Source: an uncultured Bacilli bacterium (GTDB taxonomy: Bacteria > Bacillota_I > Bacilli_A > RF39 > UBA660). Taken from it: a DNA stretch of 64,000 nucleotides. The position numbers were made by a program, and so were the translations under genes. Shown here piece after piece: positions 4,940 through 57,263 of this stretch (positions within the stretch are counted from its first letter, which is position 1; each line of letters starts with the position of its first letter). The stretch is from the NCBI GenBank assembly GCA_934090935.1, contig CAKOKD010000003.1, positions 92,604 through 156,603 on the forward strand, read 5' to 3'. The notes under the pieces are model-generated. The model worked only from the letters and a program-made list of their open reading frames with translations, was not told where the DNA came from and searched no databases.

Positions 4940-6193
4940 TTAAGATATTTTAAACGCTGGAGAAATACCATAGATCGCGATAGTGTTTGTATATGAAAGC
5001 TTACCTGATTCACTAACGTTACAGAATCCTTGAGCATCCTTTGCAGCAGCAGTTCTAAGCCAATAACTAGTGTTTGTTCCTTGATAAGTCTTTATGGCTG
5101 GAGAGTACTCTGTTAAAGTAACTGAAGCATTCTTATAATAGTCAAGTTGTCTTGTTGAAGCACCTGATGAATCATAGAATGTTGAATTTTCTCCCCAAAT
5201 CTCTTTTGGTGAAAACAAATATATTTTGTCGCTTGATTGAAAATCCATTTCTCCCCTTGTTGGACCATGTCCCGATATTATTTTGGTTGTAGTTATAACA
5301 TTTTGTAACTCACTTGGAAGAGCAGAATAAATAGTGTCATTAAGATAAAGTTTTAAATATGTTGAATTCCAACCTCCTACGTTAGTAGCTGTGCTATTTA
5401 CATATATTTTATCTATAATATCTACAATTTCAAATACAAAACCACAGGCCGTTTCACTTCTTTCAGTAGTACATGCACTTGTATTCATAATGCGAACTTG
5501 AACAGTTTGAGATGGAATAACGGCAGATTTACATGTATAAGAAGTAGTATTCTTTATAATTGTTCCACAGTTATTTGTATAAGAACTTAATGTTATAGTT
5601 TTAGTATCTCCTACTTTATATTCACTTGTATTACCATTTTCGATGTCGTTTTTAATAGTTTCCCAGCTATTCTTTTCAAAAGCACTGGCACCTGTTTCAA
5701 TCTCAGTTCGTTCTGTTGCATTAAATTCTAATGTACAGGTATATTCTTCACTTACCTCTTCTGTTGATGTTTTATTAAGAGTTGTTGTAAGAGTTCCATT
5801 TACTGACTTTTTAGCTTTTACAACATCGGCATTTCCTTCAAGTTCATTCTTGATACTTGTATATTTTGCTGTTGCTCCGTCCTTTGGTACACATGTTACT
5901 TTAACCTCTGCATCATAAATGCTTGAGTTATTAGTTATCGTATATTCTAGAATTGAAGTTTGATTTAATGTCTTTAATTCTGATGTTTCAAAAGTTATAA
6001 CCTTTTTAGTATCATCAATTACATCATCATATACATCTTTACCATCAAGACTAGCAGCAGTAAATGCTACTGAAAAATCATCCTCATTTTCAGATATTCT
6101 TGTATTCGAATTTATTATAAGCGTTGTTGATACGGCAGCAAATCCAATACTCATAATCAATATTACTAAAGCTAACATATTCTTATTTTTCAT
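4940..6193 (-). CDS. variable secreted protein paralog, conserved N-module + C-terminal SPAFRI-type domain; tandem copy without poly-G promoter
   Basis: MKNKNMLALVILIMSIGFAAVSTTLIINSN... N-module is about 75% identical to the other copies. C-terminus has ...WLRTAAA...GISPAFKIS. RBS GAGAGG. Confidence 0.75.
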   Translation of the reverse strand: MKNKNMLALVILIMSIGFAAVSTTLIINSNTRISENEDDFSVAFTAASLDGKDVYDDVIDDTKKVITFETSELKTLNQTSILEYTITNNSSIYDAEVKVTCVPKDGATAKYTSIKNELEGNADVVKAKKSVNGTLTTTLNKTSTEEVSEEYTCTLEFNATERTEIETGASAFEKNSWETIKNDIENGNTSEYKVGDTKTITLSSYTNNCGTIIKNTTSYTCKSAVIPSQTVQVRIMNTSACTTERSETACGFVFEIVDIIDKIYVNSTATNVGGWNSTYLKLYLNDTIYSALPSELQNVITTTKIISGHGPTRGEMDFQSSDKIYLFSPKEIWGENSTFYDSSGASTRQLDYYKNASVTLTEYSPAIKTYQGTNTSYWLRTAAAKDAQGFCNVSESGKLSYTNTIAIYGISPAFKIS

Positions 6194-6240
6194 ATATTTT
6201 CCTCTCTATCAACTTTAGTATGTGTATTATTAACTATTTT

Positions 6241-6269
6241 AAACAAAAAAAGATAGATTTAATCTATCC
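6241..6269 (-). terminator. rho-independent terminator of paralog 6289..7476
   Basis: Minus-strand GGATAGATT-aa-ATCTATC hairpin followed by TTTTTTT. Confidence 0.5.
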
Positions 6270-6288: not shown

Positions 6289-7476
6289 TTATGCGATTCG
6301 GAATGCTGGAGAGACTCCATTGAAATAGTTTGCATCGTTACTGTACCATCTGCCATCACTGTCGACGCCAAGGAAACCAATGTCATAATCAGAATAAGCC
6401 GAACGAAGCCACCATGTTGTATTTATTCCGTTATGTTGTTTTATTGCTCCTGCGTAACTGCTTGTTGTTACTCCTTGATTTTTATAATAATCTAATTGTT
6501 TTGATGTTCCTATTGATGTATCATGATCATTACCATTCCAAACTTCTTGTGCACTCAATAAGTATAATTTATCTTGGGTTTCAAAATTCGTTTCTCCACT
6601 TGTACTTCCATGACTTGATATTACTTTTGTTATTGTAATCACGTTTTGTAATTCAATTGGAAGTGCATTATATATTGTTCCATTTACATATGTACGTAGT
6701 TCTGAATCTTTCCATCCACCTACATTTGTTGCTGTACTATTTATTTTGTGATCTGCTATATAGCTTGCAAATTCTACTACAAATCCACATGCTGTTTCAC
6801 TTGTTTCTGTTGTACATGAACTCATGTTTGCAATACGCACTGTATGTGTTCCTAAATCCCCCAAGTCTACTTCTTTAGTATCTCCCACATTGTATTTATC
6901 TGTATTTCCTGATTTTACAGCTTTTTGTATTGTTTGCCAACTATCAGTTGAAAATGAGATAGGATCCGGAATGTTTACTCCAACAGTATCTCTTTCTACT
7001 GCATTAAATGTAAGTGTACATACATATTCTTCTCTTACTTCTTCTGTTGCTGTTTTATTAAGTGTTACTGTTAATGTTCCATTAACACTTTCCTTTGCCA
7101 ATACTTTCGTTACATTTCCTTCTAGTTCATTTTTTATACTTGTGTATTTTGCTGTAGTTCCATCTTTTACTTTACAATTTACTTGCACTTCAGCATCATA
7201 GTTTGCTGAATTATTTGTTACTTCATAATTTAACACACTTGTTTGATTTAGTGTTTTTAATTCTGATGTTTCAAATGTTATTATCTTCTTTGTTTCATCT
7301 ACTACAGAACTATATACATCCTTTCCATCTATACTTGCAGCTGTAAAGATAACTGAGAAGTCATCTTGATTTTCACTTACGTTTGCATTTCCATTTATTA
7401 TTAATGTTGTTGAGATCGCTGCAAATCCAATTGACATTAAAATAATTGCTACTATAAGCATACTCTTCTTTTTCAT
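6289..7476 (-). CDS. variable secreted protein paralog (N-module + SPAFRI-type C-domain)
   Basis: MKKKSMLIVAIILMSIGFAAISTTLIINGNA... Conserved blocks NVGDTKEVDLG, CTTETSETACGFVVEF, TNVGGW, LQNVITxTKVIS, QLDYYKN, WWLRSAYS, GVSPAFRIA. Confidence 0.8.
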   Translation of the reverse strand: MKKKSMLIVAIILMSIGFAAISTTLIINGNANVSENQDDFSVIFTAASIDGKDVYSSVVDETKKIITFETSELKTLNQTSVLNYEVTNNSANYDAEVQVNCKVKDGTTAKYTSIKNELEGNVTKVLAKESVNGTLTVTLNKTATEEVREEYVCTLTFNAVERDTVGVNIPDPISFSTDSWQTIQKAVKSGNTDKYNVGDTKEVDLGDLGTHTVRIANMSSCTTETSETACGFVVEFASYIADHKINSTATNVGGWKDSELRTYVNGTIYNALPIELQNVITITKVISSHGSTSGETNFETQDKLYLLSAQEVWNGNDHDTSIGTSKQLDYYKNQGVTTSSYAGAIKQHNGINTTWWLRSAYSDYDIGFLGVDSDGRWYSNDANYFNGVSPAFRIA

Positions 7477-7503
7477 ATTATACCTACTTTCCTTTACTTT
7501 TTT

Positions 7504-7530
7504 ATTTTATAATACCCCCCCGATTTTCAA
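7504..7530 (-). promoter_or_regulatory. phase-variable-type promoter: -35 TTGAAA (7525..7530), G7 tract (7515..7521), -10 TAAAAT (7504..7509); spacer 15
   Basis: The coding strand reads cTTGAAAatcGGGGGGGtattaTAAAATaaaaa. The same element recurs with G8 or G9 at five other loci. Confidence 0.6.
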
Positions 7531-7681
7531 GTCATTTTGGAGGGTTTACACTACTTCTTGTAAATATCCTACTGTATAACTTTATTATACTACATATTTG
7601 TTGTATTTTACTTATTTTATTTTTTTATGTGTAAAGTCAAAAAAAGCACTTAAGTTTTAATCCTTAAATGCTTATTTATTT

Positions 7682-7741
7682 GGAAGTATTTTTACTTCCT
7701 GTTATTATTATGTGTAGTTTTTAAAAAATATACATTATTTT
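7682..7741. repeat. conserved about 60-bp boundary element (GGAAGTA-loop-TACTTCC hairpin + TGTTATTATTATGTG + AAAATATACATTATTTTT) immediately 3' of the rhomboid stop codon; second copy at 19566..19631
   Basis: About 50 nt are nearly identical at the 3' flanks of two unrelated genes (rhomboid and mutM). Each faces the upstream end of a paralog cassette. Confidence 0.5.
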
Positions 7742-8863
7742 TTATCTAAATAACAACATGTAGATTAAAAATCCTATTAAAATAGTTGTTATGATAATTC
7801 CATTAATTGTATCTGTTTTATCAGTTCTTCCTTCAACACCAACTATCATACCAGAGAATAATCCTCCAACAAGTCCACCAATATGACCAAAGTTATCAAT
7901 CATTGGATTCATAAAGCCGATTACTAGGTTTAAGATTATTACAGGAACTATACCAGTCATCATTACATTTCCTAAATATAATCTATAATGATATCCAAAG
8001 TATAATAAAGATCCCATAAGACCAAATATTGCTCCGCTTGCTCCAATTGATGAATAATTACCTAATACTCCACTTAAAAGTGAAGAAACAATTGCACTCA
8101 TTAAATATACAAATATAAATTTTTTCTTCCCTAAAACGTTTTCTAATTCTTTACCAATTATAGCAAGTGAATACATATTGCAAAGCAAATGTATTATATC
8201 TGCATGGAAAAATGCGGCTGTTATTAATCTATAGAATTCATGATTTTGTATTCCTGTTTTATTCATTGAAAAAGCGTTTACATCCAATATTCCTGAAACG
8301 GATAACATAAATATAAGTACATTTATAAATATCAAAACATAAGTGATGATAATTGGCTTTTTCTTAAATGTTTTTTCAAATAATTTGTTTTTTTCTTCTG
8401 TTTTAACATTGATATCATTCGTAACGTTTATGAAGAAATCCATATTATCGCTTGAAGATATTTCATCATTTTTTATATCTGGGAATATCTCAAGAAGTCG
8501 GTTGTTTTCGATTCCTTCATCAACATCTATTTTACATAGATCCATGTTTTTTCGATGCTCATCAAACTTAACATTTTCACCAATATTTAAGAATATATTT
8601 AAAGTTTTACATTTAAATGATAAAGTTTTCTTTTTTATTTGTTTGACTACTGAATTTGTTTTATAGATATCAAAATCCAATTGTTCATTATTATGAATAT
8701 AATTGCTATTGATTCTTACAACTTCGTAGTCTGAATCTAAGTTTTCTAACCATATTTCATTTTCAACACCATTTACAAGTATTGGTTGATAGTTTTCTTT
8801 TGTAATAAAGTAATGCACTAAACGCATCACTAATTGATCAGTATTTGACATGTTCATAACCAT
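7742..8863 (-). CDS. rhomboid-family intramembrane serine protease with N-terminal cytoplasmic extension
   Basis: C-terminal half has GASGAIFGLMGS (catalytic Ser in GxSG) and ...H... in the last TM helix. Multiple TM helices. Confidence 0.75.
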   Translation of the reverse strand: MVMNMSNTDQLVMRLVHYFITKENYQPILVNGVENEIWLENLDSDYEVVRINSNYIHNNEQLDFDIYKTNSVVKQIKKKTLSFKCKTLNIFLNIGENVKFDEHRKNMDLCKIDVDEGIENNRLLEIFPDIKNDEISSSDNMDFFINVTNDINVKTEEKNKLFEKTFKKKPIIITYVLIFINVLIFMLSVSGILDVNAFSMNKTGIQNHEFYRLITAAFFHADIIHLLCNMYSLAIIGKELENVLGKKKFIFVYLMSAIVSSLLSGVLGNYSSIGASGAIFGLMGSLLYFGYHYRLYLGNVMMTGIVPVIILNLVIGFMNPMIDNFGHIGGLVGGLFSGMIVGVEGRTDKTDTINGIIITTILIGFLIYMLLFR

Positions 8864-16602: not shown

Positions 16603-16722
16603 ACTCGCGTATAAATGCAACTGACTACCTTTATTTCATATGAAATAATAAGGCTCTTGAGCTTTGCGTCACTACATTTCTATAGTTTTGCCCTAATCTA
16701 CTTTAATAAAATATAACATAAT

Positions 16723-17265
16723 TTAGTTTATTAGTAAATTAAAATTTTTAAATATTTGAAATTTGTTTATTGGGAATATACGTAGATTAACCTTACCTAT
16801 AATGTTTTCTTTTTTTACTAGACCAAATTCACGGCTATCGCTTGAGTTTGTACGATTATCACCTAAAACAAAATACATGTTATCAGGTATTTTATCGTAT
16901 CCAATGTCCTCTAGTTTAAAGTTTTTTGTTGACTCTTTTATGTTTTTTTCTTTATACATCTGTCCATCTATATATAATATATTATCTTTATACTCAATAT
17001 GTTCTCCTGGTAAGCCAATTATTCTTTTTACCATTACTTTATCGTTTTGTTTAATGGATACAATTTCATTTCTTTTAATTTTTCTTAAATGATATATAAG
17101 TTTATTGACTACTGTGACATCACCACTTTTTAAAGTAGTATTCATAGAAGGACCGATAACCTCTTGAAATGATACGACATATATTGCAATAAATAAAATG
17201 ATAGCGATCGCGGCCAAATATTTAAATGCATCACGAAAAAATTCTTTTATATCTCTTAGATCCAT
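16723..17265 (-). CDS. signal peptidase I (LepB/SipS type, Ser/Lys dyad)
   Basis: N-terminal TM. Box B GPSM, box D GDNRTNSSDSR, KRIIGLPGE. 180 aa. Confidence 0.85.
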   Translation of the reverse strand: MDLRDIKEFFRDAFKYLAAIAIILFIAIYVVSFQEVIGPSMNTTLKSGDVTVVNKLIYHLRKIKRNEIVSIKQNDKVMVKRIIGLPGEHIEYKDNILYIDGQMYKEKNIKESTKNFKLEDIGYDKIPDNMYFVLGDNRTNSSDSREFGLVKKENIIGKVNLRIFPINKFQIFKNFNLLIN

Positions 17266-17791: not shown

Positions 17792-18970
17792 TTATACTAT
17801 TCTAAATGCTGGGGAAACACCTTTAGAGACGTTCGCATCGAAAGCGGAGTTGACGCCGCTGCTACTGACGCAAAGAAACCAGTAATTAACGCCAGAATAA
17901 GCCGAACGTAACCACCAATAGTCATTTCTTCCTTTATATTGTTTTATTGCTCCTGCATATTTATCAGCTGTTATTCCTTGATTTTTGTAATAATCTAATT
18001 GTCTTGACGTTCCTACTGATGTATCATGATCATCACCATTCCATACCTCTTGTGCATTTAATAAATATAATTTATCTTGTGTTTCAAAATTTGTTTCTCC
18101 AGAATTTTTTCCATGGCTTGATATTATTTTTGTTGAAGTTATTACACTTTGTAAGTCACTTGGAAGTGCATTATATATTGTTCCATTTATATATGTACGT
18201 AACTCTGAATTTTTCCATCCACCAACATTTGTTCTTGTACTGTTAAATGCTCGCATTGTTATTATATCTGCAAACTCAACTACAAATCCACATGCTGTTT
18301 CACTTGTTTCAGTTGTACATGCACTCATGTTTGCTATACGCACTGTATGTGTCCCTAGATTACCTAATTCTACTTCTTTAGTGTCTCCTACATTATATTT
18401 GCTTGTATTTCCATTCTTTACGTTTGATGCTATTGCTGACCAACTATCCTTTTGGAATTGAGTTAATTCTACACCAACTGTGTCCCTTTCTACTGCATTG
18501 AATTCTAACTTACATGTATATTCTTCACTTACTTCTTCTGTTGATGTTCTATCAAGTGTTACTGTTAATGTTCCGTTTAATGAAGTCTTTGCTTTTACAA
18601 CTGTGGCATTATTTTCAAGTTCATTCTTGATACTTGTATATTTTGCTTTTGTTCCGTCCTTTGGTACACATGTTACTTTAACCTCTGCATCATAGTTTGC
18701 TGAGTTATTTGTTACTTCGTAATTTAATATACTTGTTTGATTTAATGATTTTAATTCTGATGTTCCAAATGTTATTATCTTCTTTGTATCATCTACTACA
18801 GAACTATATACATCCTTTCCATCTATACTTGCAGCTGTGAAGATAACTGAGAAGTCATCTTGATCTTCGCTTACTTTAGCATTTCCGTTTATTATTAATG
18901 TTGTTGAGATCGCTGCAAATCCAATTGACATTAGTAATATTGCTACTATAAGCACACTCTTCTTTTTCAT
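17792..18970 (-). CDS. variable secreted protein paralog (N-module + SPAFRI-type C-domain)
   Basis: MKKKSVLIVAILLMSIGFAAISTTLIINGNAKV... C-terminus ends ...WWLRSAYS...GVSPAFRIV. Confidence 0.8.
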   Translation of the reverse strand: MKKKSVLIVAILLMSIGFAAISTTLIINGNAKVSEDQDDFSVIFTAASIDGKDVYSSVVDDTKKIITFGTSELKSLNQTSILNYEVTNNSANYDAEVKVTCVPKDGTKAKYTSIKNELENNATVVKAKTSLNGTLTVTLDRTSTEEVSEEYTCKLEFNAVERDTVGVELTQFQKDSWSAIASNVKNGNTSKYNVGDTKEVELGNLGTHTVRIANMSACTTETSETACGFVVEFADIITMRAFNSTRTNVGGWKNSELRTYINGTIYNALPSDLQSVITSTKIISSHGKNSGETNFETQDKLYLLNAQEVWNGDDHDTSVGTSRQLDYYKNQGITADKYAGAIKQYKGRNDYWWLRSAYSGVNYWFLCVSSSGVNSAFDANVSKGVSPAFRIV

Positions 18971-18997: not shown

Positions 18998-19025
18998 ATT
19001 TTATAATACCCCCCCCGATTGTCAA
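18998..19025 (-). promoter_or_regulatory. phase-variable-type promoter: -35 TTGACA (19020..19025), G8 tract (19009..19016), -10 TAAAAT (18998..19003); spacer 16
   Basis: The coding strand reads TTGACAatcGGGGGGGGtattaTAAAAT, then the leader with AAGGAAAG RBS and ATG at 18970. Confidence 0.6.
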
Positions 19026-19069
19026 ATTTTTCTGTTGAAAAGTTGTAAAGTTCGTGTTATATTTTATTT

Positions 19070-19151
19070 AGTGAGAAGCAAAGTTTCTTTAGGACGCGAT
19101 GCTTACCACCATTGGTGTTTGCACCTTTTTCAAAAGAAAAGGTGCTTTTTT
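19070..19151 (+). ncRNA. candidate antisense small RNA (type I antitoxin-like), promoter TTGAAA-17-TATATT at 19035..19063, intrinsic terminator 19121..19151
   Basis: Promoter, repeat motif A (GTGAGAAGCAAAGTTTCTTTAGGACGCGATGCTTACCAC), then GCACCTTTT-tcaaaag-AAAAGGTGC plus TTTTTT. No ORF. Convergent with the peptide ORF. Confidence 0.4.
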
Positions 19152-19156
19152 ATAGT

Positions 19157-19252
19157 TTATATTCCTTTTTTACAAAGTAGATATAATAATATAAAAATTA
19201 TAACGAATAAACTTACAATTAAAACATCTGTTTTAAATGATTTCTTAAACAT
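19157..19252 (-). CDS. 31-aa hydrophobic peptide (type I toxin-like): MFKKSFKTDVLIVSLFVIIFILLYLLCKKGI
   Basis: AAGGGAG RBS 9 nt before ATG. Single TM helix with charged ends. 5' UTR contains the reverse complement of motif B (19304..19339). Its 3' end overlaps the sRNA terminator. Confidence 0.4.
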   Translation of the reverse strand: MFKKSFKTDVLIVSLFVIIFILLYLLCKKGI

Positions 19253-19565
19253 TATAAATCACTCCCTTACTACAGCCTTTGCTGAAATTTACGTCCTACA
19301 TATAAGAAAGTGATAAGCATCTTTCCCTTGCTTCTCGAGTATTTATTTAAACATAATTTTTTTATATTTCAAAACTACAAAATTTTAAATTTGGAGTCTC
19401 AGATTTTTAATATCTGTAGCGATTTATATGCAAATCGTTAAAATCTGTCAAAAAAAAGCTACCAATTTTTAAGTTTAGTAGTTTTAACACTTTTTTTATA
19501 AAAAAAGAGTATTGAATAATCAATACCCTAAGCAAATTAAGTAAAATCTTAAATGCTTTAATATC

Positions 19566-19631
19566 GGAAGTATAAATTAACTATTTATCTACTTCCTGTT
19601 ATTATTATGTGCAATAATTTTAAAATATACA
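19566..19631. repeat. second copy of the conserved boundary element (GGAAGTA-loop-ACTTCC + TGTTATTATTATGTG + AAAATATACATTATTTTT) directly 3' of the mutM stop
   Basis: See 7682..7741. 21/21 identical core ACTTCCTGTTATTATTATGTG. Confidence 0.5.
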
Positions 19632-20441
19632 TTATTTTTGACAGTTTTCACAAAAATAAGTTCCACGTCCGCCTACTCTTATTTTCTTTATTTTATTTTT
19701 ACAGTTTGGACATATTTCTTTTGTATGAACTTTTAAATAATCTTGATAATGACCAGTTACTCCTAAAGATGAAGTATAGCTTCTTATTGTTGAACCTCCA
19801 AGTTCTGTTGCTTTTTCAATAATAACTTTTGAAGAAATACGTATTTTATCACATTCATCTAAAGTGATACTTGATCCACTTCTATTTGGATTTATGTTTG
19901 AGGCAAATAAAACTTCATCAACATATATGTTTCCTAAACCATTTATAATTGATTGATCTAAAAGAAGTGTCTTTATCGGTTTATTTTTATTATGAATAGA
20001 TTTGTAGATATATTCTTTTGTTAAAGAATCATTATCGGGTTCTATTCCTAATTTCTTTATTTCCTTTGAAGAATATACATCTTTAGTTTTTAAAACTCGC
20101 ATACGACCAAATTTTCTTGTATCATGATATCTTAAAGTGAATTCATCAAATATGAATATCACATGTTCATGTTTTTCTATTGGCTCTTCTGCTTTCTTTA
20201 TAAAATATTTTCCTTCCATACGTAGATGAGATATTAACGTATATTCTCCTAAATTAAATAGTAAATATTTTCCAAAGCTACTAACACTTTCAATCGTTTT
20301 TCCAATTAATATATTTTTAAATTCGTTTATATCTTGATCAATTATACGATCATATATAACATTTATATCCTTTATTTTATTTCCTGGTAGACTTTTATTT
20401 AAAGTTCTTGCTACTGTTCTTACTTCAGCGATTTCAGGCAT
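19632..20441 (-). CDS. mutM: formamidopyrimidine-DNA glycosylase (Fpg/MutM)
   Basis: N-terminal MPEIAEVRT (catalytic Pro2/Glu3). C-terminal zinc finger CPNCKNKIKKIRVGGRGTYFCENCQK. Confidence 0.9.
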   Translation of the reverse strand: MPEIAEVRTVARTLNKSLPGNKIKDINVIYDRIIDQDINEFKNILIGKTIESVSSFGKYLLFNLGEYTLISHLRMEGKYFIKKAEEPIEKHEHVIFIFDEFTLRYHDTRKFGRMRVLKTKDVYSSKEIKKLGIEPDNDSLTKEYIYKSIHNKNKPIKTLLLDQSIINGLGNIYVDEVLFASNINPNRSGSSITLDECDKIRISSKVIIEKATELGGSTIRSYTSSLGVTGHYQDYLKVHTKEICPNCKNKIKKIRVGGRGTYFCENCQK

Positions 20442-26180: not shown

Positions 26181-26208
26181 ATTTTATAATACCCCCCCCG
26201 ATTTTCAA
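26181..26208 (-). promoter_or_regulatory. phase-variable-type promoter: -35 TTGAAA (26203..26208), G8 (26192..26199), -10 TAAAAT (26181..26186); spacer 16
   Basis: Same element as the other copies. Followed upstream by an about 130-bp block shared with 31835..31960. Confidence 0.6.
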
Positions 26209-31799: not shown

Positions 31800-31827
31800 A
31801 TTTTATAATACCCCCCCCGATTTTCAA
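31800..31827 (-). promoter_or_regulatory. phase-variable-type promoter: -35 TTGAAA (31822..31827), G8 (31811..31818), -10 TAAAAT (31800..31805); spacer 16
   Basis: Identical architecture to the 26181..26208 copy. Confidence 0.6.
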
Positions 31828-31998
31828 GGGCATTGTCTTGTTTTACATAACTTTTGTCGTCTGTTTTATTTTGCAGTTGTATTATATCTTATATTATACA
31901 ACATTTTCGTTGTATTTTGCATATTCATTTTTATTATGCGTAAAGTGTATTTATTTATTATCATTGTAATTTATATTGAAAAATGTTATATTTATTTT

Positions 31999-32089
31999 AG
32001 TGAGAAGCAGAAGTTTTCTTTTGAGGCTGATGCTTACCACGTGTTATGTGTACGCATCCTTATTCAGTAGAATAAAGATGCTTTTTTTT
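31999..32089 (+). ncRNA. candidate antisense small RNA copy 2 (promoter TTGTAA-17-TATATT at 31964..31992; terminator 32054..32089)
   Basis: Motif A (GTGAGAAGCAGAAGTTTTCTTTTGAGGCTGATGCTTACCAC), then GCATCCTTATTC-agta-GAATAAAGATGC plus T8. Convergent with the 27-aa peptide ORF, whose stop lies in the U-tract. Confidence 0.4.
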
Positions 32090-32171
32090 ATTGCCATAAT
32101 AATTTTAAAATTATTACTAGCAATATAAAAACGATTAGATAAAGTAATCTTATATGATTATCTTTTTTCAT
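32088..32171 (-). CDS. 27-aa hydrophobic peptide (type I toxin-like): MKKDNHIRLLYLIVFILLVIILKLLWQ
   Basis: AGAGGAAG RBS 7 nt before ATG. Near-consensus promoter TTGACA(32289..32294)-16-TATAAT(32267..32272) fires directly into the reverse complement of motif B (32229..32261). Confidence 0.45.
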   Translation of the reverse strand: MKKDNHIRLLYLIVFILLVIILKLLWQ

Positions 32172-32344
32172 CGTATCACTTCCTCTCGTACTCCTTAACC
32201 AAAACCCTGAATATTTAGCCTCTAGTTTGGAAGTGATAAGCACCTTTTTCTGCTTCTCGAGTTTGTATTATATATGCTAAATTTTTCTTGTCAATAAATC
32301 CGACAAATGTCGACAAAATTAGAACCTAAAAAAAATAAAATATA

Positions 32345-38573: not shown

Positions 38574-38601
38574 ATTTTATAATACCCCCCCCGATTTTCA
38601 A
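38574..38601 (-). promoter_or_regulatory. phase-variable-type promoter copy: -35 TTGAAA (38596..38601), G8 (38585..38592), -10 TAAAAT (38574..38579)
   Basis: Same element. Here it is upstream of a non-paralog cargo gene. Confidence 0.55.
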
Positions 38602-39783: not shown

Positions 39784-40704
39784 ATGCAAGAAATTATTAA
39801 TAAAATAATACAACAAAATCAAAATTTATTTAGAGAAAATTCAACAGTAAGTAAAATTAATGTTGGATTTACCAATACTTTATATAGTGTTAATGATTCT
39901 TTTATTATCAAAATATGTACTGATTTAAATAATGAACCTAAATTCAATAAAGAAATAGAATTTTATAATGCAAATAACAATAATGATTTAATACCAAAGT
40001 TATATTATGCTAACACTGATAAAGCTGATATTCCATTTTTCTATGAAATATTAGAAAAAATTAATGGAGTTTCATTATATGATGTTTGGCATACTTTTAA
40101 CGAAGAACAACGAGAAGACATTATTAAACAATTATGTGAAGCAATGAAACAATTTCATAGTAATAAAGGGCAAAGTTATGATTGGGTAAAAAGAACTAGC
40201 TATTTATTTATAAATTCGTATAACAAAGCAAAAGAATTGAATTTACTTACTAGCGAGGAACAAGAATTGTTAGAAAGTGCTTATTCAAAATTTGATGGAT
40301 ACTTACAATCTGATGAATTTGTTTTAATCCATAATGATTTGCACTTTGATAATGTATTTTATGATAATGGAAAAATAAAATTAATTGATTTTGAAAGATC
40401 AATATATGCACCAAGAGATTTTGAATTAGATATTCTTTATAGAATGATCAGAAAACCTTGGAAGTTTGCAAGTGAAGAAAATGAGCGATATACAAAACTA
40501 GAAGATTATGAAAATATAATGTCTTATATTGAAAAATATTATCCAGAATTAATACATATTGATAATTTATATCAAAGACTTGCAATATATGATATTGTTT
40601 ATTTCTTGAAACAATATGTTAATGCACCACAATATGATGAATTAAAACAAGATGTATTAAATGCAGCCAAGATTGTTGTAGGAAATCAAAAAGTAAAATT
40701 ATAG
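39784..40704 (+). CDS. aminoglycoside/choline-kinase (APH) family phosphotransferase
   Basis: Brenner motif HNDLHFDNVFYDNGKIKLIDFE (catalytic HxDxxxxN ... D). 306 aa. Confidence 0.65.
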   Translation: MQEIINKIIQQNQNLFRENSTVSKINVGFTNTLYSVNDSFIIKICTDLNNEPKFNKEIEFYNANNNNDLIPKLYYANTDKADIPFFYEILEKINGVSLYDVWHTFNEEQREDIIKQLCEAMKQFHSNKGQSYDWVKRTSYLFINSYNKAKELNLLTSEEQELLESAYSKFDGYLQSDEFVLIHNDLHFDNVFYDNGKIKLIDFERSIYAPRDFELDILYRMIRKPWKFASEENERYTKLEDYENIMSYIEKYYPELIHIDNLYQRLAIYDIVYFLKQYVNAPQYDELKQDVLNAAKIVVGNQKVKL

Positions 40705-40717
40705 GAAGTGATGATTA

Positions 40718-41245
40718 ATGGATAGTTTTGTATGTAAAATTGCTACTCGAGATGAAATTATAAAAAGAATGAACTATTTAATAGAAACTCATCCTAACAA
40801 TAATGTATGGATAGAGGCAAAAGAAAATGCTCTTAAAGGATTTGATGAACAAAGTAAAATAATGTATATAGGCGTTCTTAATGATGAAATAATTTGTGAA
40901 GCAACCACTTATATAAAAGAATCCGCATTCATAGGAGATGTAAAAGAACCAGAAGGCTTATTAAGTAAAACTATGGCATATTTTAGTGGTTTTAGAACAA
41001 ATAAAGAGTACGAAGGTAAAGGTTATTTTGGTAAATTGTATAACTTTATGGAAGATGATTTAAAAAAAAGAGGATATACTGAATTTTGTTTAGGGGTTAA
41101 ACCTCGTAATGTTAGAAATATGGAAATATACTTTCATTTAGGATTTAGAGAATTTATTAAATCAATTATTGAATATGAACCAGTAAAAAATAACAAATCT
41201 AAAACAGAATTAGTGGTTATAAACTATTTTAAAAAGAAGATATAG
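40718..41245 (+). CDS. GNAT-family N-acetyltransferase (putative)
   Basis: 175 aa. EYEGKGYFGKL (motif A, Q/RxxGxG/A-like). Immediately downstream of the APH-family gene. Confidence 0.5.
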   Translation: MDSFVCKIATRDEIIKRMNYLIETHPNNNVWIEAKENALKGFDEQSKIMYIGVLNDEIICEATTYIKESAFIGDVKEPEGLLSKTMAYFSGFRTNKEYEGKGYFGKLYNFMEDDLKKRGYTEFCLGVKPRNVRNMEIYFHLGFREFIKSIIEYEPVKNNKSKTELVVINYFKKKI

Positions 41246-41529
41246 CAAAATAAAAATCGTGGCACGTTATGAACTTACAAAGTAATTTTGTAAGTGGCGA
41301 TAGATTTTTATAATTTATTTTCATTACGAAGTTTTGAAAATAAACAATTGCAATTTATTACAATTCAAAAAAACATAATTTGCTTGAACGAATTGTTCTT
41401 GCTTAATTATGTTTTAGGGTTTCAAAAGGGAATATTCCCTTTGCACACACCTATTGGCTCTGCCAATAGAGAAGTGTGTTTTATCTATTGGAAATAAATA
41501 TTACTGACAAGCGAATGCTTGTCTTTTTA

Positions 41530-42357
<828 letters not shown>

Positions 42358-42931: not shown

Positions 42932-43006
42932 TGGTGTCCTAGATGAGAATCGAACTCATATCTAAGCTTTAGGAGAGCCTTGTACTATCCATTGTACTAC
43001 CAGGAC
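42932..43006 (-). tRNA. tRNA-Arg (anticodon CCU), CCA-encoded
   Basis: Reverse complement GTCCTGG-TA-GTAC..GTAC-A-AGGCT-CTCCTAA-AGCTT-AGAT-ATGAG-TTCGATT-CTCAT-CTAGGAC-A-CCA. Cloverleaf with 7-bp acceptor stem (one G-U), TPsiC GTTCGATTC. Anticodon loop CU-CCU-AA. Confidence 0.8.
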
Positions 43007-56057: not shown

Positions 56058-57263
56058 TTATGCGATTCGGAAAGCTGGAGAGACTCCGCAGGAATCGCTC
56101 GCACCGTAGCTGCCCCAGTTGCCGATGAAGATGACATTAAGGAAGCCGGACGTATTGAGAGAATAAGCCGAACGAAGCCACCAATTAGAGTTAGCTCCTT
56201 TATATTGTTTTATTGTTCCTGCCTTATTACTTGTTGTTACTCCTTGATTTTTATAATAATCTAGTTGTTTCGATGTTCCTACTGCTGTATCATATTGAGC
56301 GCTAGAAGAACTTGCAAAGTCTCCATATATCTCTTCATTTGATAATAAATATAATTTATCTTGTGTTTCAAAATTTGTTTCTCCACTTGTACTTCCATGT
56401 CCTGATATTACTTTTGTTGTTGCTATTACGTTTTGTAAGTCACTTGGAAGTGTATTGTATATTGTACCATTTACATATGTGCGTAATTCTGAATCTTTCC
56501 ATCCTCCTACATTTGTTTCTGTACTATTAAATGATTGTTTAGTTATTATATTTGCAAACTCAACTACAAATCCACATGCTGTTTCACTTGTTTCAGTTGT
56601 ACATGCACTCTTATTTGCTATTCTTACTGTATGCGTTCCAAGAGAACCTAAGTCTACTTCTTTTGTATCTCCCACATTATATTTACTTGTGTTTCCTATT
56701 TGTACTGCTTTTTGAATTGTTTTCCACGAATCTGTTGCAAATGATACTGGATCTAGAATATCTTCTCCTATAGTATCTCTTTCAACTGCATTAAATGTAA
56801 GTGTACATACATATTCTTCTCTTACTTCTTCTGTTGCTGTTTTATTTAATGTTACTGTTAATGTTCCATTTAAGCTTTCTTTTGCTTTGACAACTGTGGC
56901 ATTATTTGCTAATTCATTTTTAATACTTGTATATTTTGTTGTTATTCCAGTCTTTGGTACACATGTTACTTTAACCTCTGCATCATAGTTACTTGAGTTG
57001 TTTGTTACTTCATAATTTAAGATACTTGTTTGATTAAGTGTTTTTAAATCACTTGTTTCAAATGTAATTATTTTCTTTGTACCATCTATTACATTTGCAT
57101 ATACATCTTGTCCATCTAAGGTTGCTGCAGTGAAAATAACACTAAAATCATCTGTATTTTCTCCTACTTTTGCATTTCCATTTATTATTAATGTTGTTGA
57201 TACAGCCGCAAATCCTATTGCTAATAATAGTATAGTAACTGCTATAATCGATTTTCTTTTCAT
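56058..57263 (-). CDS. variable secreted protein paralog (N-module + SPAFRI-type C-domain)
   Basis: MKRKSIIAVTILLLAIGFAAVSTTLIINGNAKV... C-terminus ends ...WWLRSAYS...CGVSPAFRIA. Confidence 0.8.
   Translation of the reverse strand: MKRKSIIAVTILLLAIGFAAVSTTLIINGNAKVGENTDDFSVIFTAATLDGQDVYANVIDGTKKIITFETSDLKTLNQTSILNYEVTNNSSNYDAEVKVTCVPKTGITTKYTSIKNELANNATVVKAKESLNGTLTVTLNKTATEEVREEYVCTLTFNAVERDTIGEDILDPVSFATDSWKTIQKAVQIGNTSKYNVGDTKEVDLGSLGTHTVRIANKSACTTETSETACGFVVEFANIITKQSFNSTETNVGGWKDSELRTYVNGTIYNTLPSDLQNVIATTKVISGHGSTSGETNFETQDKLYLLSNEEIYGDFASSSSAQYDTAVGTSKQLDYYKNQGVTTSNKAGTIKQYKGANSNWWLRSAYSLNTSGFLNVIFIGNWGSYGASDSCGVSPAFRIA

Follow-up and report, generated by a model that had tools for sequence, protein, structure and literature searches.

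The repeated element that follows a rhomboid protease gene and mutM in the window, by which we mean the whole 64,000-nucleotide stretch of DNA that was analysed, is most probably the native 3' untranslated region and terminator of mutM, and the copy behind the rhomboid gene a passenger of one duplicative insertion of 1474 bp (we put the probability of this reading at approximately 0.8). This reading rests on the homology of the two copies, on sites that are empty in relatives, on the direction in which the block was copied, on its junctions and on hairpin predictions, each of which is described below. The result removes a candidate recombination site and puts in its place an ordinary explanation with junctions resolved to the base pair. 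It also provides a clean, dated example of how a putatively phase-variable surface-protein family spreads in an uncultured gut Bacilli lineage.

The repeat and the hairpins behind mutM

The window is AT-rich (~28% GC) and nearly all its genes lie on the minus strand, including the two that carry the repeat directly 3' of their stop codons, encoding a rhomboid protease (7742-8863; an ORF of 373 aa, the called gene beginning two codons later) and Fpg/MutM (19632-20441). The 21-mer ACTTCCTGTTATTATTATGTG occurs in the window at exactly two places, 7694-7714 and 19591-19611 (plus strand), and no third copy was found there even with three mismatches allowed, whereby shuffled sequences give an expectation of 0. 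The palindrome GGAAGTA-N-TACTTCC is likewise confined to 7682-7699 and 19566-19596 within the window. The near-identical element that the first-pass annotation had described behind both genes is thereby confirmed. Its length had been given as about 60 bp; the similarity really extends over approximately 100 nt (~7637-7742 versus 19530-19639) and includes a second hairpin, AAGCAtTTAAG...CTTAAnTGCTT. Read in the gene sense, both copies consist of the stop codon, AAAAATAATGTATATTTT..CACATAATAATAACA, hairpin 1, a short A-rich link and hairpin 2. The rhomboid copy, copy A (7637..7742, minus strand), runs from AAAAATAATG... through a spacer, hairpin 1 and hairpin 2 to U7, and the mutM copy, copy B (19530..19639, minus strand), from the last codons CAA AAA TAA through hairpins 1 and 2. 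They are identical at 74 of 80 aligned bases, with 23 gap positions, which is in line with the divergence of the coding sequence (86%) and the leader (90%), so that no special conservation of copy A needs to be assumed. In homologous copies of 80-85% identity, a perfect run of 21-22 nt has a probability of ~0.1-0.3, thus the run in itself is not unusual.

Exact matches were scanned for in one genome per species and in the JGI metagenomes. Outside the window, all eight loci with an exact 21-mer match are mutM 3' ends, and they belong to uncultured gut Bacilli or Firmicutes CAG:582-like genomes; three related representative genomes contain exactly one match each, at mutM. The element is also present in the contigs with an identical MutM (L004-L009), and it follows mutM in L036, L037 and L043 (MutM at 83%, 80% and 78%), where the gene has the same ...TGT CAA AAA TAA ending. 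In L042 (MutM at 70%) the C-Q-K-stop ending is alike, but an unrelated terminator stands in place of the element. No copy was found elsewhere in the 44 fetched loci, and no match in viral contigs. Since every match outside this species, whether to the exact 21-mer or to the hairpin-1 pattern, lies at a mutM 3' end, the motif is not the widespread REP-like sequence that the first-pass annotation had named as the observation that would overturn it. A 437-aa 'mutM fusion' (P0124) comes from a coverage-1 contig (L041) that diverges inside the gene; it is probably chimeric and was ignored.

The repeat starts inside the mutM coding sequence, its first 8 nt being mutM codons. In L011, mutM and the element are followed by ~0.9 kb and then priA, and in L036, 113 bp separate mutM from a convergent bPH gene; a paralog of the DUF6273 family is present in neither. 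At both loci the element thus borders no family member, and it is a native mutM tail that is independent of the paralog family.

At mutM, hairpin 1 (copy B, 19566-19596, minus strand) is built of two stems, an outer one of 7 bp and an inner one of 5 bp, with a bulge between them. Neither stem differs between any of the six mutM versions, in contrast to the 5-nt loop and the spacer in front of the hairpin, which do. In hairpin 1 of copy A (7682..7699, minus strand; GGAAGTA-AAAA-TACTTCC) a 13-nt loop deletion has removed the inner stem and loop, and the 7-bp outer stem survives. Hairpin 2 of copy A (7644..7673, minus strand; AAGCATTTAAGG...CTTAAGTGCTT, 11 pairs, with T7 at 7637-7643) is predicted to be an intrinsic terminator. 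In this clade, the hairpin 2 at mutM (copy B, 19530-19558, minus strand) has lost its U-run, and the terminator-like hairpin 3 immediately downstream (19499..19529, minus strand; AGGGTATTGA..TCAATACTCT plus T7, 10 pairs), with its stem at 19529-19506 on the minus strand followed by the T7, takes over as the predicted mutM terminator. A stem-loop with a U-rich tract 3' of the stop codon on the coding strand is thus found as hairpin 2 in copy A, as hairpin 3 at mutM and as hairpin 2 in L036, L037 and L043, and hairpin 2 with its U-run scores as an intrinsic terminator in copy A and these three loci. At one position of the hairpin 2 stem, L036 has U-A, copy A has U-G and L037 has C-G, and the stem of L043 is a different one (AACGCUUAAG/CUUAGGCGUU); between species, the stem is kept by compensatory change. 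Hairpin 2 of L036 is preceded by an A-run and followed by a T-run, and lies between the convergent mutM and bPH-domain genes; it is therefore a predicted bidirectional terminator. It is probable that hairpin 2 really ends transcription. The earlier claim that the copies are not independent terminators was right insofar as they are homologous, but the element does contain a predicted terminator.

The invariance of hairpin 1 across species and its survival in copy A suggest that it has a function, and we favour a role as a protective 3' stem-loop or as a stop for antisense transcription. The same features (7-bp and 5-bp stems unchanged while loop and spacer vary, an outer stem that outlives the 13-nt deletion), together with folding z-scores of -3 to -5.3, could also mean that the copies have been kept similar as a functional regulatory RNA of ~100 nt, be it a 3' UTR small RNA or an antisense promoter/terminator. 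We consider this unlikely, as hairpin 1 shows no covariation, the identity between copies A and B is no higher than the age of the duplication predicts, promoter-like matches occur at background frequency, and the rhomboid genes of relatives do without the element. No Rfam family matches either copy (nothing better than E ~1), and the only Rfam hits in the window that pass the gathering threshold are tRNA and a c-di-GMP-I riboswitch. The candidate promoters within the element, TGTTATTAT (extended -10-like; plus strand) and TATATT (minus strand), were rejected because such motifs occur at this frequency by background in AT-rich DNA.

The block inserted at the rhomboid locus

In relatives with a rhomboid protein of 85-88% identity (L018-L031, more than 10 contigs), neither a paralog nor the element is found behind the rhomboid gene. 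There, the end of the gene (...TTT AGA TAG) is followed by a terminator (AGATAG-n-CTATCT plus T8), a promoter of ~50 bp and a gene for a protein of 286 aa. In the window, the native rhomboid terminator (GATAGAT-TAA-ATCTATC plus T7; 6245..6268, minus strand) is displaced and now lies downstream of DUF6273 paralog A. The empty site in relatives and the recovery of the native terminator at 6245-6268 together indicate that the 1474 bp from 7742 to 6269 (minus strand), between the rhomboid stop codon and this terminator, are an insertion. The comparison of synteny with relatives lacking the paralog, proposed as a check in the first-pass annotation, thus yielded empty sites from which the whole block is absent. 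The block comprises the mutM tail, a promoter module (7540-7637), a poly-G core promoter with leader (7477-7539), the coding sequence of paralog A (6289-7476, minus strand) and a 20-nt tail. The idea of co-duplicated cassette ends therefore holds for the rhomboid copy, which is the outermost part of the inserted block, but not for the mutM copy, which is native.

A second paralog, A2 (4940..6193, minus strand), is an older resident of the rhomboid locus. Its leader, which resembles that of L032, follows the displaced terminator, and both lie within 6194-6268, between paralogs A and A2. In L032 (rhomboid at 82%) the terminator is kept and one DUF6273 gene is placed after it. The spacer between the rhomboid gene and the gene for the 286-aa protein thus contains a DUF6273 gene in L032 and in this genome and is empty in the closer relatives (85-88%), which implies loss or repeated gain at the same spot; the stretches concerned are 5117-5190 in L032 and 6194-6268 in the window.

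The block begins with AAAAATAA, which corresponds to the last codons of mutM, and the start of copy A, AAAAATAATG, matches the mutM sequence CAA AAA TAA TG; the copying therefore went from mutM to the rhomboid gene. The same direction is indicated by L006, which we read as a second strain of this species, its mutM region being 99.8% identical: at its mutM locus the element, the promoter module, the poly-G leader and the paralog follow each other in the order seen in the inserted block, with a middle block behind the element. Thus, as in a segmental duplication, there is an empty site with intact native flanks and a collinear homology with the donor that extends beyond the short repeat. The tetranucleotide GATA is present on either side of the block, at 7743..7746, where it overlaps the rhomboid stop codon, and at 6265..6268 (both minus strand). 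This possible 4-bp target duplication hints at a staggered-cut insertion; a random duplication would not require one. The rhomboid stop codon is TAA here versus the ancestral TAG. For the right junction, where paralog A meets the native terminator, this window is the only source, and the right end of the donor was not recovered, as the contigs of L006 and L012 end inside the paralog. No convincing terminal inverted repeats were found for the block, and its right end has neither a hairpin nor an inverted-repeat partner.

We propose the following history. The ancestral arrangement was compact, with hairpin 2 between mutM and the convergent gene, and one copying event brought the last codons of mutM, its tail, the paralog promoter and a DUF6273 paralog into the rhomboid locus, precisely at the point where the stop codon of the rhomboid gene is followed by its terminator. 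Termination of the rhomboid transcript would now fall to the copied hairpin 2 and its U-run, and the displaced rhomboid terminator would now serve the new paralog. A block copied along with its neighbour's terminator was in this way dropped between a gene and its own terminator without damage to either gene, the terminators having swapped clients. Because the block lacks both terminal inverted repeats and a hairpin at its other end, the window contains neither a transposase nor a tyrosine recombinase, and the homology boundaries of the other paralogs are different, we infer a one-off illegitimate event, such as staggered-break capture, microhomology or template switching. Against a simple copy speaks that at its 3' end paralog A is more similar to paralog C than to paralog B and that the paralogs are mosaic, so that the history is more complex than a single clean copy.

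Paralogs, leaders and neighbouring modules

Paralog A shares 77% protein identity with paralog B, the family member downstream of mutM (17792..18970, minus strand); paralog C is located at 56058-57263. The identity of A to B is 86-97% over the first ~300 alignment columns, which cover the leader and the start of the coding sequence, but in its middle and at its 3' end A is closer to C. The closest pair changes along the gene: A and B are 97% identical at columns 200-300, A and C 90% at columns 500-600, and B and C 88-89% at columns 300-400 and 800-900. This pattern suggests gene conversion among the DUF6273 copies, which blurs the history of the duplication. The DNA homology between the paralogs stops ~63 bp upstream of the ATG, at 7539, 19034 and 57330, and is not contiguous with the element.

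The 63-bp leader is a predicted promoter (TTGA[AC]A, a spacer with G7-G8, and TAAAAT) and is found at no fewer than three further genes (26208, 31827 and 38601), of which two encode ALK_LTK_GRD-domain proteins. The element is missing from paralogs A2 and C and from the other genes that have this leader. Poly-G tracts occur on the minus strand at 7508-7530, 19003-19025, 26186-26208, 31805-31827 and 38579-38601; a poly-G spacer thus precedes at least five genes, and those that could be typed encode surface-type proteins (DUF6273 or ALK_LTK_GRD-domain). Promoters that vary in phase through their spacer classically have a homopolymer tract in this position, between the -35 and -10 boxes. In the assemblies, however, its length hardly varies: paralog A has G7, L043 has G6 and nearly all others have G8. 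Public contigs of this species (L004-L009, L015-L017) often end inside the element, just behind it or at the paralog leader, indicating that assemblies are systematically fragmented by the repeated promoter and paralog modules. For annotation it is useful to know that the breaks in public assemblies of this organism fall at these modules.

At mutM, a block of ~475 bp (19055-19529, including hairpin 3) is inserted right after hairpin 2. The element had been described as the first sequence beyond the upstream region of a paralog, which is true of the rhomboid copy, but at mutM this other sequence lies in between. Behind hairpin 3, its first part, the middle block (19055..19498, minus strand) carries, besides a second terminator, a short ORF for a hydrophobic peptide and a small-RNA gene in convergent orientation. 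Its presence at mutM is limited to this species and CAG:582-like relatives; copy A, L036, L037 and L043 do not have it. Copy A, in which hairpin 2 is directly followed by the U-run, is as compact as L036, L037 and L043, and either predates the insertion of the middle block or has lost it.

The minus-strand mRNA region at 19055-19400 and a paralogous module at 31970-32290 look like type I toxin-antitoxin loci. Both have a promoter and a structured 5' UTR that starts with GAGAAGCA..TGCTTATCAC, in which a CACTT(T/C)C segment can pair with the Shine-Dalgarno sequence, and each encodes a hydrophobic peptide of 27-31 aa (MFKKSFKTDVLIVSLFVIIFILLYLLCKKGI; MKKDNHIRLLYLIVFILLVIILKLLWQ), the small ORF of the mutM-side module being located at about 19128-19223. 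A bidirectional terminator closes each module, and opposite to it lies a convergent small RNA of ~80 nt under the control of an extended -10 promoter (19035-19063, plus strand). For these modules Rfam yielded no match close to threshold, and all Pfam matches stayed below it.

Further along, the c-di-GMP-I riboswitch (59.6 bits; 16613-16702, minus strand) precedes a 102-aa ORF and the gene for a 719-aa protein that contains Ig-like and Listeria-Bacteroides repeats. The riboswitch adjoins a type I signal peptidase gene (16723-17265) and a bPH-domain gene, and the same gene set follows mutM in L036 and L037. A SipW-type assignment of the neighbouring peptidase was rejected, since it matches ordinary bacterial signal peptidase I. 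In the region 39784-42324, a plus-strand pair of APH-kinase and GNAT genes coincides with a local reversal of the GC skew; together with a 158-aa N-terminal fragment of a serine recombinase (CcrB/XisF-like; 41848-42324) and a nearby tRNA (42935-43006), this region is probably the remnant of an integrated element.

Site-specific recombination, dispersed repeats and known systems

The first-pass annotation had offered a recombination or attachment sequence as one reading, and an attC-, dif- or att-like site for the insertion of DUF6273 cassettes would fit hairpins with a conserved stem and a loop of variable length, the position of the element at the outer edge of the inserted block and the duplicated GATA at the junctions; ATAA-TGTATA in the element presumably also bears a loose resemblance to dif-type sites. 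This reading has largely failed already, and we consider it very improbable. The element is found at mutM with or without a paralog (L011 and L036 having none), the repeat begins inside the mutM coding sequence, and the homology of the mutM paralog ends ~500 bp away from it, at 19034/19055. Two of the paralogs (4940-6193 and 56058-57263) and other genes with the shared leader do without such an element, and there is no matching second end. No integrase or transposase was found near the element and no tyrosine recombinase among the window ORFs scanned, the sole recombinase in the window being the truncated serine recombinase 22 kb away. Finally, the GC skew is monotonic, thus the window is not at the replication terminus.

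A variant would make hairpin 1, which stays invariant across species that differ by about 20% in MutM and is kept in copy A, the cis-acting end for a trans-encoded machinery that moves DUF6273 cassettes by staggered-cut insertion and leaves the GATA duplication behind. If this were true, the mutM tail would not be a passive passenger but would form the donor-side end of a non-autonomous mobile cassette. We give it a very slim chance; the invariant hairpin 1 and the 4-bp flanking duplication remain as residual curiosities.

There is next to no chance, in our estimation, that the element is a small dispersed mobile or REP/MITE-like repeat that reached the two gene ends in separate insertions: its palindromic form, its place after a stop codon and before the next gene and its two copies in 64 kb would fit, but each of the three related representative genomes has exactly one match, at mutM, no copy turned up elsewhere in the 44 fetched loci or in viral contigs, the first 8 nt of the repeat are mutM codons, and copy A is collinear with the neighbouring promoter and paralog in the way of the mutM locus of L006. 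Equally far-fetched is a chimeric join across repeated paralog sequence, for although contigs often break here (L004-L009 and L015-L017 end at or near the repeats), the junction from the rhomboid stop codon to the element is identical in three independent assemblies from different runs (L015-L017), which argues against a chimeric assembly, and the displaced native terminator with the flanking GATA forms a coherent insertion signature.

Returning to the mutM-derived tail and its copy, a comparison with known systems helps to define what they are. With integron attC sites and Xer-dif modules the element shares a folded imperfect palindrome with a variable loop at a cassette border. In integrons, the inverse core and core sites RYYYAAC and GTTRRRY bound each cassette, and an IntI integrase is encoded nearby. 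The element has no GTTRRRY core, as by inspection the only GTT in it is GTTATTA, in which the positions after GTT are not RRR; there is no site for each cassette (paralogs A2 and C lack one) and no integrase among the ORFs scanned. A dif/Xer site is 28 bp long, with two 11-bp inverted arms and a 6-bp centre, and lies at the terminus or flanks an integrated element. Here, the arms around TGTATA are by inspection not inverted repeats, the monotonic cumulative GC skew places the element away from the terminus, a pair of direct repeats would bracket essential genes such as that for LeuRS, and the element exists without any cassette. A dif-like reading based on a resemblance to Firmicute and E. coli dif sites (ACTTCCT..., ATAA-TGTATA) was rejected because of these arms, the absence of a terminus by GC skew and the start of the repeat in the mutM coding end. 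Transposons of the IS200/IS605 type and PATEs have subterminal hairpins at both ends and no target duplication, with a Y1 TnpA in the genome; the inserted block has no right-end partner, GATA is duplicated, and the window contains no transposase.

Like REP/BIME, Correia, BOX and RUP sequences, the element is a short palindromic intergenic sequence beside gene ends. Those repeats occur in many copies at unrelated sites, whereas the element is not dispersed, with two copies in 64 kb and a single one in each of the three representative genomes; it has one ancestral locus, mutM, and one secondary copy, and it includes coding bases of mutM.

Contingency-gene families with a homopolymer in the promoter spacer, such as Neisseria opc/porA and Mycoplasma vlp, resemble the DUF6273 family in their 5' promoter/leader modules with poly-G between the -35 and -10 boxes, in their mosaic coding sequences and in the presence of copies at several loci. 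In contrast, the unit described here was copied together with the terminator and the final codons of an unrelated housekeeping gene. Moreover, phase variation is putative in this case, the tracts being nearly all G8, with G7 at paralog A and G6 in L043.

With intrinsic and bidirectional terminators between convergent genes, the element has in common a stem-loop and U-run directly 3' of the stop codon, the layout of A-run and T-run in L036 and a stem that is maintained by compensatory changes. It differs from them by the additional, sequence-invariant stem-loop of hairpin 1 in front and, at mutM in this clade, by the loss of the U-run of hairpin 2, where hairpin 3 is the predicted terminator instead.
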